Below are positions 1,131 to 57,252 of a DNA stretch of 64,000 nt, one piece after another; position 1 is the first letter of the stretch, and the number at the start of each line of letters is the position of its first letter. A model generated the notes under the pieces. The model was not told where the DNA came from. It saw only the letters and a list, made by a program, of their open reading frames with translations, and made no database searches. This stretch comes from a virus. The translations under genes and the position numbers were made by a program. The stretch covers positions 32,001-96,000 of IMG/VR virus record IMGVR_UViG_3300026097_001055; one strand, given 5' to 3'.

Positions 1131-1155
1131 AATAAATATAAAAACCAAAAAAAAG

Positions 1156-7292: not shown

Positions 7293-7330
7293 AAAAGGAG
7301 AGCGAGAGGTTATTTCTCCTCTCCTTTTTT
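7293..7330 (+). terminator. Rho-independent terminator
   Basis: AAAAGGAGAG-C-GAGA / TCTC-CTCTCCTTTT hairpin plus T tract. Confidence 0.8.
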
Positions 7331-7882: not shown

Positions 7883-7903
7883 AATCTAATAAAAACCAAA
7901 ATT

Positions 7904-8026
7904 ATGAATAAGTGCACAAACTGTGGAAAAGCATTAAATTGCGGATGTAAAAGAAGAAAAGCATCAGATGGTAAATCATGTTGTACAGCTTGTCTTAATA
8001 AGTATGAAAATAGTATTAAAAAATAA
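7904..8026 (+). CDS. 40-aa Cys-rich metallothionein/zinc-finger-like peptide (missed by ORF track)
   Basis: MNKCTNCGKALNCGCKRRKASDGKSCCTACLNKYENSIKK; 7 Cys; AAAAACCAAAATT-ATG start; stop is 2 nt before the next ATG. Confidence 0.75.
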   Translation: MNKCTNCGKALNCGCKRRKASDGKSCCTACLNKYENSIKK

Positions 8027-9294: not shown

Positions 9295-9362
9295 TAAATA
9301 ATTTATATGTATATATTAATACATATATAAGGTAATGTAATTTTAATTTAGTATATTATAAT

Positions 9363-9998
9363 ATGAAGCCTTTAAATTTAGATAAAAGTCCTTGTTCACC
9401 AGTATCTTCAAATTGTGTAATTTGGAATGGTTCTGATATTGAATGCATTGGTTTATGTAAAGGGGATACAGTTACTCAAGTTATATATAAACTTGCAGAA
9501 GAATTATGCAGCCTTATTGACATGTTTAATCTGTCTAATTATGATATTTCTTGTTTAGAATTACCATGCCCTCCTAATTCATTTGAAGAACTTATTAATG
9601 CGTTAATTCAAGCTATATGTGAAGGTGGTATTCAAGGAGAACAAGGAGAACAAGGGATAGAAGGAAAAGAAGGTCCACAAGGTTCACAAGGTATACAAGG
9701 TCCTCAAGGTAATCCTGGTCCTCAAGGTATTCAAGGTGCAACAGGACCTCAAGGAGTTCCTGGACCTGCAGGTGCTACAGGTGCTCAAGGCTTACAAGGT
9801 CCAATCGGACCTCAAGGAAATAATGGAACAAATGGTTTAGCAGGTAGAGGTGTTGCAGTATTTGTACAGAATACTACACCTGAACAAGAAGACTTTGATG
9901 CACAATATGCAGCAGTACCTGGATTTGGAGTCAACGGTATTCCTGGATCTAATACCTTTAAAGCTGGTGATTTATGGATTGAAAATTGTGAAGAATAA
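9363..9998 (+). CDS. Collagen-like fibre protein with Cys-rich N-terminal domain
   Basis: About 24 uninterrupted Gly-X-Y triplets (nt ~9627-9845). Confidence 0.85.
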
Positions 9999-10768: not shown

Positions 10769-11644
10769 ATGGAAAATAAATGTACACATACAGAACCTAA
10801 TTGTGGTTGCGTTGATGGACCTATGACTACTCCACCAGCATGTCCACCTTTACCTTGTCCTAATCCTCAACCTTGTTCATCTTATACAGATGCACAATGT
10901 GTGATTTACACAGGCGATGATCTAATATGTGACCAGCAAATAGTAGTAGAAAATAATGCAAATTTAAATGATATAATTATTGAATTAGTTTCAAGAATTT
11001 GTGAAGCTGCTGGTAACATTCCTCAAACAGTTGTTGTTGGCGGAAATAATATTGATGTAAGTTCTAATACTGTTGGTTCAACAACAACTTATACAGTATC
11101 TCAACCAAGTAAAATATTTTTTTATGAAGAATTTATAAGCGATATTGATATAGTTGATAATGCTCCAGCTCCGGGTCCAGATAATTACTTTTTTCCAATA
11201 GGTTATGAAATATTAACTTTTCAAAACACTTACCTTGACCCTACTGTTTTTAAAATAAATGTTTCTTATAATACAGACCTTCCAGATATTATAGGTATAC
11301 CAGATAATGCTTTAAATAACTGGGTAGATGGTGCAATTGTAACAACTCTCGGAGGAGTAGATACTATTCAGTATGAAACTTTAAGTCTAACTAATATGGA
11401 AGTATATTTATGGGATACTGTAAATAATTCTGTAATATCAGGATCTACAGTAGATACAGTAAGAACTGAGCCTGGTGATCATGCTGTTGATGTTAGATTT
11501 ACTAATCAAAAAAAACCTATAAATACTTCTTTTTTTAAAGTAGTTACGTTACAACCAGGTGAATTTGTTTCTTTAAAATTTAAAAGTAAATCAGGTTCTA
11601 TAGGTAGATTATTAAAAGCCCAAATTTTAGTAGAAGAATTGTAA
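10769..11644 (+). CDS. Putative fibre protein with Cys-rich N-terminal domain
   Basis: CVIYTGDDLIC module paralogous to that of 9363..9998; VVVGGNNIDVS..VGSTTTYTVS fibre-shaft motif. Confidence 0.55.
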   Translation: MENKCTHTEPNCGCVDGPMTTPPACPPLPCPNPQPCSSYTDAQCVIYTGDDLICDQQIVVENNANLNDIIIELVSRICEAAGNIPQTVVVGGNNIDVSSNTVGSTTTYTVSQPSKIFFYEEFISDIDIVDNAPAPGPDNYFFPIGYEILTFQNTYLDPTVFKINVSYNTDLPDIIGIPDNALNNWVDGAIVTTLGGVDTIQYETLSLTNMEVYLWDTVNNSVISGSTVDTVRTEPGDHAVDVRFTNQKKPINTSFFKVVTLQPGEFVSLKFKSKSGSIGRLLKAQILVEEL

Positions 11645-11650
11645 AAAATA

Positions 11651-11720
11651 GATCGTGGTTTTTTGGTTTTTACAACGATCAGAAACCCAAGACCCTCACT
11701 AAAGTGGGGGTTTTGTTTTT
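11651..11720 (+). ncRNA. Candidate 3'-UTR small RNA: hairpin with GGTTT-rich loop plus terminator
   Basis: GATCGT..ACGATC stem with loop GGTTTTTTGGTTTTTACA, ATCAGAAA linker, terminator hairpin. Confidence 0.4.
11688..11720 (+). terminator. Rho-independent terminator
   Basis: CAAGACCCTCACT-AA-AGTGGGGGTTTTG then T tract. Confidence 0.8.
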
Positions 11721-11732
11721 AAATTTGCATAA

Positions 11733-11764
11733 CTTGCTAATATCATTTATATTTACTATATTAA
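11733..11764 (+). promoter_or_regulatory. Putative promoter for tail operon
   Basis: CTTG, 20-nt spacer, TATATTAA, directly after a terminator and before ATG 11775. Confidence 0.5.
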
Positions 11765-11774
11765 ATATATACAT

Positions 11775-12362
11775 ATGCGTCCAAAATTTAAAATACCAGA
11801 TCTTAATGCTCCTCGTTTTTATCAACGTTCACATAACATTATTACAAAAGAATTTATAGAAAATTTTGTAAAAAAATATCCAAAGTATAAGGGTATAACC
11901 AAAAGTGAAATAAAAAAAATAGTTAAAGTTTTTAATACAAATTCTTGGAAAGAGACTTTAGAACATAGAGATGGTATAAAGTTACCAGAAAGTGTGGGTT
12001 CTTTATTTATAGGAACATGTCCTCCACCTAAAGTTCAATACAATCCAGATTATAATTTATTGCATAAAAAAAATATAGTAGCTTCTAATAAAAATTGGGA
12101 AACTGATGGTAATATAGCTAAAATATTTTTTACTTCATATAGTGAAAAATATAAATATAGATTCAGAGAGCACTGGATGTTTCATCCAGTACGAGTGTTT
12201 AAAAGAACTGTTGCTAAAGAATATCCTAAAAATTGGACTATGTTTCATAAAGTAGATCCAAAGAAAAAGCTTTCTGATCAATTTTTAAAAGCAATTAATA
12301 AAGATAAATTTGAAAGAGCATCTAAGAAAAAATTAGAAAATTATAATGATTTAGAACTATGA
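11775..12362 (+). CDS. crAss-like IHF/HU-fold tail-module protein
   Basis: Helix-helix followed by GIKLPESVGSLFI beta arm; synteny before ring/Ttub/Tstab genes. Confidence 0.5.
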   Translation: MRPKFKIPDLNAPRFYQRSHNIITKEFIENFVKKYPKYKGITKSEIKKIVKVFNTNSWKETLEHRDGIKLPESVGSLFIGTCPPPKVQYNPDYNLLHKKNIVASNKNWETDGNIAKIFFTSYSEKYKYRFREHWMFHPVRVFKRTVAKEYPKNWTMFHKVDPKKKLSDQFLKAINKDKFERASKKKLENYNDLEL

Positions 12363-13030
12363 CTACAATAGGAGAAAGTATAACTAGAGTACGTAATATA
12401 ATTAAAGCTGTAAAAGAAGATGCTTTTGTTACAGACAGACAAATCTATTACAATATTATAAAGTATGGTAGTTCTTTACTTAAGAGAGAAGACAATCAAA
12501 ACAAACTTATGAGAATGAGTAGTCTTATGACTACTTTACCTTATGTAGAATTAATTGATACAGATAAGATTGATGCTGCTTGTTTTGGGGTTTATTCGGG
12601 ATGTTTTTTTAAAAGATCAAAGGAAAAGCTACCAGCTTTTTTTCAAGGCACTTATGGACCCTTAATTAGAACAGTAACATCTATTGATGGTTCACAAAAT
12701 CTTTATCAAACAGAACCTAGTATTTTTGTTAGACTTTCTAAATCTACTAATTTTAAGTATAATAAAAAACTATATTTTTGGTATCTTAATGAATATATTT
12801 ATGTTGCAAATGTAGATTGGGATGCAATTAAAGTAGAGGGATTATTTGAAGGTTCTGTTGCAGATTTTCTCTGTCCTGATGAAAAATCTTGTGATCCTAG
12901 ACAAGATCAATTATTACCTTTTCCAGAATATCTTTTTTCTGAGATAGAACAATATGTATTAAAAGAATTTACCACGACTTTACAGTTACCTACATCAGGT
13001 GCTGATGATAGTCAAAACCCGAATAGATAA
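12359..13030 (+). CDS. crAss-like tail ring protein (gene 73-like)
   Basis: 223 aa, ATGA overlap with upstream gene; synteny. Confidence 0.5.
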   Translation: MTTIGESITRVRNIIKAVKEDAFVTDRQIYYNIIKYGSSLLKREDNQNKLMRMSSLMTTLPYVELIDTDKIDAACFGVYSGCFFKRSKEKLPAFFQGTYGPLIRTVTSIDGSQNLYQTEPSIFVRLSKSTNFKYNKKLYFWYLNEYIYVANVDWDAIKVEGLFEGSVADFLCPDEKSCDPRQDQLLPFPEYLFSEIEQYVLKEFTTTLQLPTSGADDSQNPNR

Positions 13031-22294: not shown

Positions 22295-22336
22295 ACTTTT
22301 AAAGTTTAATTGTTATAAATAAATTTAGTATATTTA
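22292..22336 (+). promoter_or_regulatory. Promoter with 17-bp palindromic operator (copy 1)
   Basis: TAAACT-TTTAA-AGTTTA, 20-nt spacer, TATATTTA. Confidence 0.6.
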
Positions 22337-31900: not shown

Positions 31901-32915
31901 AAAAAAATTAGATTTGTCTAATATATTTATATCGGCATCTTTAAAAAATATAATACCTTCTTTAGAACAAAACAAAAAAAGACAAATTAATATAGTTGAA
32001 GATCTTCAAGAAGTAAAAGGTTTTACATCTAAAGGTATGTATTCAGGAACAGATGCCGATAGTGATTTTGGATTTCATTCTTTTGGTATGACAGCTACTA
32101 CTAATTTATCTAATTATAATATAGATGAAATAGATAATTTACGTGATGCTTTAAATTTAGGAAAAAAACTTTTTAATCAAAAGTCAAATGGAATTCCTAT
32201 TATTCCAGATTTAAATGATGATAAAAAAATAGGAAATACAAGAGCTGTAGTACAAGTCAAAGATGAAGATGTTTATAGAAATGGCACAAAAGAAGAACAG
32301 GAGACTTATTTAGATCTTTATGAAGACTTAACTTCATTAGAGTTTTCTGAAACTATGGATAAATTAGATACAAATGCTCCTAAAATTAAACAAACATTAA
32401 TAACAGAATCAGGTGCATATGGATATGGATTTTTAGAAATTGAGTTAGATGATAAAGGAGACTCTTATAAAAAGTATAAAGTAATTTCTGAAGACTTGTA
32501 TAAAAGTTTATCTAAAGATAAAAAGAAAAAAATAAAAGACGATGGAATAAAAATTTTACCAAAAATACGTATACACATACCTCAAAATGAATATCAACCT
32601 TTTATCAAAGCAAATAAAAGTATTGCTTTTAATACATTTAAAGCTAATGATAAAATAGGAGATTTAGATACTTTTGATGCTGAAATAAAAATAGAAAACA
32701 TAAATTCTGAAAAAATTACTTACTCTACTTTATATAATAAATACTATAGAGATTCTAATACAGATGAAATAAAATTAAAAGTTGTAGAAATAGAAGGTAG
32801 CGAATATCCTGCTAATGCTGAAGAAGATTATATGAGTATAATAACTAAATTAATTTTAACAGGTCAGGCTTTAAGTAAACAAAGTTTAAAAGAAGTTAAT
32901 AGTGATGATCAATAA
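28929..32915 (+). CDS. Large helical virion cargo/ejection protein
   Basis: 1328 aa, coiled-coil rich; KGPDPYAMARY motif; in the cargo operon. Confidence 0.65.
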   Translation: MATYIQGLTQYLPQIQPFQRDFNFFANVMQKKQTEYDSGHQAMNKLYGSIFYSDVSRADNQEKKEEILKSIDYNLRKVSGLDLSLDENVRQAKQVFKPFYEDQNLMKDISYTKTYQNAVQKGLSAKDCVGKDCPDVYWDGGLRLLNHQMKNFKNASADRAMQMRNPTYVNKFNMMKEAAKAAKENNFEIVFEGPKNGYMVKEKNGPNAIAPLSDFLYQMFGDDARAIDYYGAKAQLNFYENPEETINQYELQKMRSRAKDAEDYKNMIEEKSKRQTFEKNKRVITTAENNTRSELHEVKDRRKTFQDYATEMGEAFKASPAKQAYDETLQEENVKQRTYENIKGLSDNVRNINYFDEEGNPVAEDVIVGVVAQGMMIDDISNSAKVIANNTYEQTVKGPDPYAMARYKNQLQVGLANYKNELKKDYARFEANNELVNDLIGGKGKSKKEGKKTTDPVELTKQEEAKIRKEASDKLKEEQGNVADEDLKIAEDNAVEQARADKKNKSKLEKAQEFKDKEKEIIEAFESGDLTKEQANKLNEVMQETFEDIGEDEEGNLILLAPTTIDKKDAINTYEKKDIPKNITNISALEAMSSDEDEISYTDEEGTLQNIELTFSDMKNAIDNQSIQNAGIILKFNKNLNENTNYIGSVIGKTVYDSLKSEDPSVVAAANQVLRGVGVDPNAYTNNADDLEDAIVDVINNNPEKFNDYFLGNVVISDRAEEMFNKYRDETPTDIINKYINKTSTEVIKTNTYKGVTLPKNHNPFTLLTVGKKLGISNETVTRLKIQEDLKQKVSTLYENYDNKINDALEYGALSRHNKNTNEAKNTYDALDESPNTYLMDNYPTMTQYIKAGEKLVKQTVPSTFKSQFSRFLRDESKNNYENLKKYHEDNPDVLSGVSSTSVNIQYFEKISDFKETYKESFNEDFNFSFAEIIRLDKAGLLSAGIPSWIGPAGAPREKEPRPIFKKNKETDDYELTPEAIAGGIKFDNETKKLDLSNIFISASLKNIIPSLEQNKKRQINIVEDLQEVKGFTSKGMYSGTDADSDFGFHSFGMTATTNLSNYNIDEIDNLRDALNLGKKLFNQKSNGIPIIPDLNDDKKIGNTRAVVQVKDEDVYRNGTKEEQETYLDLYEDLTSLEFSETMDKLDTNAPKIKQTLITESGAYGYGFLEIELDDKGDSYKKYKVISEDLYKSLSKDKKKKIKDDGIKILPKIRIHIPQNEYQPFIKANKSIAFNTFKANDKIGDLDTFDAEIKIENINSEKITYSTLYNKYYRDSNTDEIKLKVVEIEGSEYPANAEEDYMSIITKLILTGQALSKQSLKEVNSDDQ

Positions 32916-56774: not shown

Positions 56775-56800
56775 GACTTTTTCAAAGAATAATTCATAAG

Positions 56801-56838
56801 AAAAAAAAAGGGGAAGCAAATTAATGCCTCCCCTTTTC
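56801..56838. terminator. Bidirectional terminator between convergent virion and replication modules
   Basis: A9-GGGGAAGCA-AATTAA-TGCCTCCCC-TTTT. Confidence 0.88.
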
Positions 56839-56873
56839 TGATAATCAACTAAACCTTAAACCTATGACAATTT
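56801..56873 (-). ncRNA. Candidate 3'-UTR small RNA: GGTTT-rich loop plus ATCAGAAA plus terminator
   Basis: Minus strand reads ATTGTCATAGGTTTAAGGTTTAGTTGATTATCAGAAA then the terminator; same layout as 11651..11720. Confidence 0.35.
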
Positions 56874-56880
56874 AAGCTCT

Positions 56881-57252
56881 TTATAAAAACTGACCTATGT
56901 CAGGTTTTCTGTAATCAGGACCTTTCATAATTTTACCATCTTCTCTATAGATAGGTTTACCATCAGATCCTAATTTACTCATATTACTTTCATGTACTTC
57001 TGTAAATACTTTTTCAATTATATCTTGCATACCATGAGCAACAATTGTTCCACATAATATATATAATTGATCTGCTAATGCATCTGCTGTTTCTACTAAA
57101 TCACCTTGTTCTACAGCATCAAAATATTCTGTATTTTCTTCAGCCATTAGCTCATATCTAAGCTTATGATTAACAGATAATGTAGGTTTTTTAGATACAG
57201 GATGTGAAAAAGCATCATGAAATTCTTCTAATTTATTTAATTGTTCTTTCAT
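56881..57252 (-). CDS. MazG-like NTP pyrophosphohydrolase (DR2231/dUTPase-like)
   Basis: EENTEY...ETADALADQLY...VHESNMSK.G.DGKPIYREDGKIMKG signature. Confidence 0.88.
   Translation of the reverse strand: MKEQLNKLEEFHDAFSHPVSKKPTLSVNHKLRYELMAEENTEYFDAVEQGDLVETADALADQLYILCGTIVAHGMQDIIEKVFTEVHESNMSKLGSDGKPIYREDGKIMKGPDYRKPDIGQFL

Follow-up and report, generated by a model that had tools for sequence, protein, structure and literature searches.

Enterobacterial sRNAs derived from 3' untranslated regions, of the CpxQ, SroC, DapZ and MicL type, need Hfq or ProQ together with RNase E processing and belong to Proteobacteria. In plant RNA viruses, the loops of 3' cap-independent translation enhancers kiss loops in the 5'UTR, and the 3' and 5' partners co-vary. 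Among phages, the c4 antisense RNA of P1 and P7 binds with its loops the ribosome-binding region of an mRNA of the same phage and blocks its translation (PMC12197685). Cluster K mycobacteriophages carry SAS, a 13-bp motif with the consensus GGGATAGGAGCCC that includes a Shine-Dalgarno (SD) core, lies 3–7 bp before starts and marks, in one orientation, a subset of non-structural genes (PMC3203893). Four of these phages each have exactly one SAS in the opposite orientation, which is not at a gene start, and the authors leave open whether the partner is an RNA or a protein of the host or of the phage (PMC3203893).

The element described here occupies positions 11651–11720 of the + strand of a 64,000-nucleotide stretch (the window), which covers positions 32001–96000 of a 114,890-bp virus record. 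It belongs to none of the compared families by sequence or model. An Rfam cmscan of 11000–12500 with E up to 10 returned sub-threshold terminator-like matches only, the best being Phe_leader, whose 27.7 bits fall short of the gathering score of 55, and the C4 model had no match in the same search. Literature searches returned no description of small or antisense RNAs in crAss-like phages or Crassvirales. By analogy, the proposed working principle is closest to that of c4 RNA and close also to that of the enterobacterial 3'UTR-derived sRNAs. As in P1 and P7, a phage-encoded structured RNA has loops complementary to ribosome-binding regions, here known from sequence, and differences among related phages would give specificity. 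The c4 RNA differs in that it comes from the immunity operon that also holds, further downstream, its one target, an antirepressor. The present element instead is found in the virion module of lytic crAss-like phages, as a hairpin in a 3'UTR, and matches four dispersed SD-less leaders. It resembles the CpxQ type in standing right after a stop codon, in using the parental terminator and in its conserved seed against several mRNA initiation regions, but the seed lies in a hairpin loop and the targets bear a dedicated, often tandem, conserved tag. The leader tag follows the same position rule before starts as SAS and likewise has one inverted copy per genome; unlike SAS, it consists of A and C only, lacks an SD core and is unrelated in sequence, and SAS have no described hairpin-displayed antisense copy or covariation. 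By the same analogy, the inverted SAS copy of Cluster K phages may hide a comparable antisense element. The plant-virus interaction shares with our locus a 3'UTR hairpin loop that is complementary to, and co-varies with, a 5' leader of the same virus, but it is eukaryotic, positive and in cis on one genomic RNA, whereas the locus here belongs to a bacterial system with several target genes.

Phage and genomic setting

The virus record has a G+C content of about 30%, and the + strand holds every gene from window position 1 to 56.8 kb, the last of which are giant ORFs of 3545 and 2754 aa. The terminase, portal and capsid proteins matched crAss-type families distantly (PHROG portal and terminase families, and weakly Pfam Crass_capsid), which identifies the virus as an uncultured, environmental crAss-like phage. 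Its capsid protein is 23–30% identical to those of human-gut crAss-like phages and of Leptolyngbya phage Lbo-JY46, and these were the only cultured phages that the capsid protein and gene (a), described below, reached by blastn and tblastn (23–30% identity); the two genes neighbouring the element had no match among cultured phages in such searches. A-rich, SD-less leaders precede start codons in this genome, which also contains TAnnTTTG motifs, the -7 element of Bacteroidota promoters. A Bacteroidota-type bacterium is the probable host, and Hfq is generally absent from this group. Phage-encoded ribosomal protein bS21 was considered as a partner of the leader motif and rejected, as this genome has no S21 gene; the paper on bS21 phages does not mention the leader motif. 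As a separate observation, the large terminase gene (genome 23961–27236, outside the window; 1091 aa) encodes a LAGLIDADG / Hom_end homing-endonuclease domain at residues ~377–451, which suggests that it probably contains an intein.

The hairpin and its conservation

The element forms the 3'UTR of a 291-aa gene of the variable tail module (10769–11644, + strand, from the ORF list; stop TAA at 11642–11644) and uses the same intrinsic terminator. Hairpin 1 (11651–11680) starts seven bases past the stop codon and pairs GATCGT (11651–11656) with ACGATC (11675–11680), to which a G11658–C11673 pair is added; an earlier note on this DNA had recognized this stem before the terminator, and only its 3' arm had to be moved one base to the left of the implied 11676–11681. 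The loop and proposed seed, UUUUUUGGUUUUUA, read as TTTTTTGGTTTTTA, spans 11659–11672, where relatives have the core UUUGUUGGUUU, and it was unpaired in nearly all full-length folds. A single-stranded, A-rich spacer of 12 nt (11681–11692), similar in length and composition in relatives, leads to the terminator (about 11688–11720), which has a CCCTCAC/GTGGGGG stem at 11693–11710 with a TAAA loop and a T-run at 11711–11720 and is the strongest within the first 20 kb of the window. In RNAfold, hairpin 1 belonged to the MFE structure and was absent from the centroid, so it is weak in this genome. A terminator does not account for the whole element: hairpin 1 forms a helix of its own, whose arms covary and whose loop is invariant, and it is the second hairpin that is the terminator.

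The region between the terminator and the next gene (11720–11765; ATG at 11775) resembles a promoter, with TAAATTTG at 11720–11727 and TATATTAAA at 11757–11765. The former is of the Bacteroidota -7 type TAnnTTTG, and by analogy with Bacteroidota promoters the region would serve as the promoter of that gene. Both sequences are kept downstream of the element in relatives, and TATATTAAA was found ahead of gene (c) orthologs too. Several virion genes share another conserved intergenic motif, (T)AGTATATTAA(A) / TTGTATATTAAA, located 10–25 nt ahead of their ATG, with sites at window positions 11757–11765, ~9345–9355 and ~22325–22335 and upstream of gene (c) in loci L468–L547; the genes behind it are the 195-aa gene downstream of the element, gene (c) and those at 9363 and 22353. 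This motif may be a late-promoter element of the phage, separate from the host-type TAnnTTTG.

Homologs of the downstream 195-aa gene (43–51% identity) were found on 180 IMG/VR contigs, 80 of which were retrieved. Upstream of these homologs, a module consisting of the hairpin, the spacer, the terminator, TATATTTGCTAAAG and TAGTATATTAA, and the ATG was kept, while the coding gene before it differed: the 291-aa gene has a single IMG/VR relative (66% aa), and other phages carry an unrelated gene in its place yet keep the element downstream. The stop codon lies 6–10 nt ahead of the hairpin in relatives, with no conserved promoter upstream, and in one divergent subgroup the copy of the element is one gene further upstream. 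A covariance model built from 29 sequences found exactly one copy in each of the whole genomes G000, G001, G002 and G004 and matched 47 of 49 relative loci at E ≤ 0.001, with a weak match at a 48th (L069, E 0.019). The earlier note had called for such a search across related phages; among 47 relatives the stem covaries and the loop core is invariant.

The covariation was assessed by pair counts. In a 48-row alignment, whose fitting to the covariance model favours structure, standard pairs filled 93.9% of cells versus 72.7% in shuffles, 13 of 14 pairs showed changes on both sides, and the covariation score was 0.70 versus 0.30 in shuffles, a value that 0 of 500 shuffles reached. When the partner was slid by one to three columns, every covariation measure collapsed, and the compensatory changes can also be recognized by simple inspection of the sequences. 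Compensatory changes were present in six of the seven pairs of the hairpin 1 stem (92% of cells paired, 47 relatives), and double changes in all seven pairs of the terminator helix in relatives. About 20 versions of the stem exist, such as GTTACAG/CTGTGAC, GTCGCAG/CTGTGGC, GTGATGG/CTATCAC and GTAGAG/CTCTGC, with a median hairpin dG of -7.3 kcal/mol in relatives. Many of the pairs are G.U, which would be A.C on the other strand, indicating that the selected structure is plus-strand RNA and not duplex DNA or a cruciform. Stems, terminator and upstream gene thus vary around a loop core, TTTGTTGGTTT, that is invariant in 47 of 47 relatives, TTTTTTGGTTT being found in this window only.

The only cultured carrier found was phage Lbo-JY46 (PP438436.1), in which the element scored 31.5 bits and comprises an AU-rich stem, the loop TTGTTGGTT and a terminator followed by TACCTTTG, 260 nt past the previous CDS. 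The recorded host of this phage is cyanobacterial, yet its sequence (L349 33400–33840) has SD-less A-rich leaders, the Bacteroidota-type -7 motif TACCTTTG and 31% G+C, and the stated host may be worth a second look. In bacterial genomes, a 15-mer scan gave matches at chance level only and the best covariance-model hit reached 28 bits, nothing convincing, and thus nothing points to a copy encoded by a host. Elsewhere in the window, the last minus-strand gene is followed, on the - strand at 56795–56885, by a small hairpin (CUUAAAUU/AGGUUUAAG) and then a very strong terminator (z -4.9). The stretch 56801–56873 was rejected as a second copy of the element: its fold differs, it gave no match to the covariance model, and the GGUUU repeats that it contains are part of the stem instead of being displayed in a loop.

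Leader tags complementary to the loop

Exact complements of the loop precede the start codons of four genes. Target site (a), TAAAAACCAAAAAA, matches over 14 nt at 1139–1152 (+ strand), three nucleotides before ATG 1156, and so includes and extends the 13-nt complement reported previously at 1140–1152. Directly upstream of this leader is the strong terminator behind the capsid gene (1103–1124, + strand); gene (a) itself (1156–2169, 337 aa) adjoins the capsid gene and its terminator on the downstream side. Its product had no Pfam, PHROG or PDB sequence match, and its AlphaFold model was poor (pLDDT 62.5), with no Foldseek match at E ≤ 0.001. Site (b), TAAAAACCAAAA, is likewise longer than the 11 nt first noticed at 7891–7901: the exact complement covers 12 nt at 7890–7901 (+ strand), two nucleotides before ATG 7904, and occupies a 21-nt intercistronic gap. 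Gene (b) (7904–8026) is a 40-aa zinc-ribbon-like CxxC ORF with a weak match to Pfam zf-dskA_traR (E 0.007). The statement that its operon begins after a terminator is not supported: gene (b) is the second gene, 570 nt past the terminator at 7304–7323. The other two sites are outside the window. Site (c) (genome 30120–30133) lies before ATG 30138 of a 431-aa gene between the portal and capsid genes, whose product had no family or PDB match, and the fourth (genome 12219–12231) abuts ATG 12232 of a 57-aa ORF. The distance from motif to ATG is 0–9 nt at the four genes, and on the + strand of the window sites (a) and (b) are the sole matches to the loop complement of at least 11 nt, the next best being a 10-nt match inside a coding region. 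An additional G.U pairing of the adjacent CGU with the AUG, suggested previously, is not supported: it is out of register, it would require the stem to open, and the arm is not conserved in relatives.

The matches are rich in A/T, and a chance origin had been raised as a caveat. As a control, we took each of the 55 ways in which nine A and two C can be arranged and counted its occurrences in the called start regions. The loop complement and its 1-nt shifts occurred in three called start regions, while no other arrangement occurred in more than one and their mean was 0.26; the gene caller missed the start behind the fourth leader in this control. The caveat was thereby removed, as this composition-matched comparison indicates that A/T richness does not explain the match. 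In G001 and G002, the complement of the respective loop or its 1-nt shifts were also among the top arrangements in start regions, while in G004 the loop complement tied with others at a single start region. Duplex energies at phage starts, which had been proposed as a further check, gave a mixed answer. By nearest-neighbour energy the true leaders ranked high (z -2.4 to -3.0) but were not unique, since A-U and G.U pairs come easily in this genome; the loop-leader duplex is short and A-U rich, and other start regions scored equally by energy alone. Energy is therefore not discriminating, and the case rests on position and conservation.

Further investigation showed that the tag is conserved at the same genes in other phages. 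The complement of the relatives' loop, AACCAACAA, or its 10-mer AACCAACAAA, stands in sense orientation just ahead of start codons and is often tandem. Gene (a) leaders carried one or two copies of ACCAAnA in 58 of 59 distinct orthologs, mostly 3–5 nt before the ATG, and the order of terminator, motif and ATG was the same in all relatives. The motif was present in the leaders of all 52 distinct gene (c) orthologs, mostly 3 nt before the ATG, and in 27 of them a second copy of AACCAACAAA lies within the first 24 coding nucleotides, so that in about half of the orthologs, with this copy at codons 3–6, the tag brackets the start codon. This second copy was observed in L468–L547 and is lacking in gene (c) of the present genome. 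Leaders of the zinc-ribbon ORF (b) contain AACCAACAA in G001 and G002, in tandem in G001. The distance from motif to ATG is constant, whereas TAnnTTTG elements are 12 to 35 nt away; this fixed distance to the ATG rather than to a promoter, together with the position in a 21-nt intercistronic gap, suggests that the motif is a translation-level signal of the mRNA initiation region. In an 85–96-aa gene after a TATATTTG promoter (G001 ~58240, G004 ~9314, G006 L142), the motif can also be read as codons (M-Q-N-Q-Q-Q-E...) after an upstream in-frame ATG, and it may there be either leader or coding sequence.

The loop and the leaders of this genome have changed together. The loop reads UUUUUUGG (UUUUUUGGUUUUU) and the leaders read CCAAAAAA (CCAAAAA) at four of four sites, while in G006 and G007, the phages most closely related to it (gene (a) 76–78% identical), the loop is UUUGUUGGUUUUU and genes (a) and (c) have CCAACAA leaders. 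A G to U change in the loop is thus matched by C to A in all four leaders, in one lineage and at five sites, and AAACCAACAAA has zero copies anywhere in this genome. Predicted cognate duplexes range from -11.5 to -13.5 kcal/mol, and non-cognate duplexes from -6.7 to -8.3 kcal/mol in seven of eight combinations; the eighth is an exception in which the junction of a tandem leader recreates the window-type motif. As judged from sequence and these predicted energies, the joint change is a natural compensatory change worth ~5 kcal/mol. Some leaders in G004, G008 and G009 are CCAAAAA beside an unchanged loop, suggesting that a single A.G mismatch is tolerated. Among the matches listed, no second genome had the variant loop: a 14-mer scan gave at least 118 low-complexity matches, and of the 80 loci listed not one was recognized by the covariance model.

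Proposed loop-leader pairing and its possible outcome

Exact complementarity, display of the sequence in a loop, the unstructured nature of the leaders where ribosomes land and the joint change are most simply explained if loop and leader pair, and we consider it reasonably likely that they do. The transcript in question would be the tail-module mRNA, whose 3' end (11651–11720) would consist of a hairpin showing a 12–14-nt U-rich loop, an A-rich spacer and the terminator. The element would act within this mRNA or after trimming to an RNA of ~70 nt, and its loop would base-pair with the SD-less leader motif (AAAAACCAAAA here, AAACCAACAAA in relatives) of two genes flanking the major capsid gene, the tiny zinc-ribbon ORF and the 57-aa ORF. 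Bacteroidota-type ribosomes load on unstructured A-rich leaders, and a duplex there would most likely lower initiation, in which case a build-up of the tail-operon transcript would dampen head-module genes. We tentatively favour, at slightly less than even chances, a model in which the hairpin is a 3'UTR antisense RNA of the tail-module transcript that occludes the leaders and lowers initiation. The proposal in the earlier note of a 3'UTR-derived sRNA acting on SD-less starts agrees with this as far as the 3'UTR site, the shared terminator, the conserved hairpin and the antisense match of the loop to a conserved AAACC-type motif are concerned, while its remaining elements, namely pairing in vivo, repression and accumulation of a discrete RNA, are all three what we infer from the sequence. 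Its suggestion that host mRNAs are targets as well is unsupported.

Pairing could also have a positive or structural outcome, such as translation activation, protection from RNase or a 5'-3' contact in a long late transcript. All the pairing evidence fits this equally, the targets belong to virion modules, for which stronger late expression would be expected of a phage, tandem copies of the motif look like enhancer repeats, and leaders and hairpin are on the same strand within 4–13 kb, separated only by possibly leaky terminators. Two strong terminators do stand between leader (a) and the hairpin, however, and antisense pairing over -2 to -20 normally occludes ribosome loading, while A-rich leaders hold no structure that needs opening; we regard a positive outcome as possible but unlikely. 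The joint change would also be expected without any pairing if the motif were a double-stranded DNA site, a late-promoter element or operator, because a shared reader protein would shift all copies together. Leader (a) is too short for a host-type promoter between terminator and ATG, and the SAS of Cluster K mycobacteriophages, too, are accompanied by one inverted copy (PMC3203893). Yet a DNA site would not explain why the inverted copy is always in a hairpin loop whose covarying, G.U-using arms are meaningless for duplex DNA or a cruciform, why the forward copies track the ATG at 0–9 nt regardless of the distance to TAnnTTTG, or why the motif is found in a 21-nt intercistronic gap and even just past an ATG, and we therefore give this explanation little credence.

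If instead the hairpin were a mere 3'-end stabilizer, a termination helper or a site for an RNA-binding protein, the complementarity to leaders would be functionless. Its position directly ahead of the terminator, the A/U-rich matches and the similar duplex energies at other start regions agree with this, but such a role needs a stem and not an invariant 11-nt loop, and it accounts neither for the loop complement being the single most enriched arrangement at start codons nor for the joint change of loop and leaders, which makes it improbable. Least probable of all, with hardly any weight in our judgement, is that the leader motif is a translational enhancer pairing with host 16S rRNA and that the hairpin loop is a competitor mimicking the rRNA. 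The motif does occupy the SD position, and the 16S rRNA of one member of the Flavobacteriaceae shares an identical 10-nt run with the loop. However, this run, near position 242, lies in a paired helix; across three Flavobacteriales 16S rRNAs, the best identical runs were 6, 7 and 10 nt at differing places, and none of the three matched the variant loop of the window.

A broader version of the antisense model would be a co-evolving RNA address code, in which the loop at the end of the tail operon recognizes tags on the messages of a few head genes and forms an Hfq-independent, virus-encoded translational switch coupling head translation to tail transcription; on the sequence evidence this may be entertained as a long shot. 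Post-transcriptional control in crAss-like phages is almost unexplored, as are RNA regulators in the SD-less translation of Bacteroidota-type bacteria. Environmental phage contigs carry the element in their hundreds, as does at least one cultured phage, and the definition of both the element and its target tag is sharp enough for a direct test, for which the natural double mutant of loop and four tags supplies ready cognate and non-cognate pairs. If the effect were positive or worked through 5'-3' contact, the element would be a bacterial-virus counterpart of the kissing between 3' enhancers and 5' leaders in plant RNA viruses, to our knowledge the first. If the antisense model is confirmed, the hairpin would represent a new RNA family by which a phage balances head and tail genes without Shine-Dalgarno sequences or Hfq.
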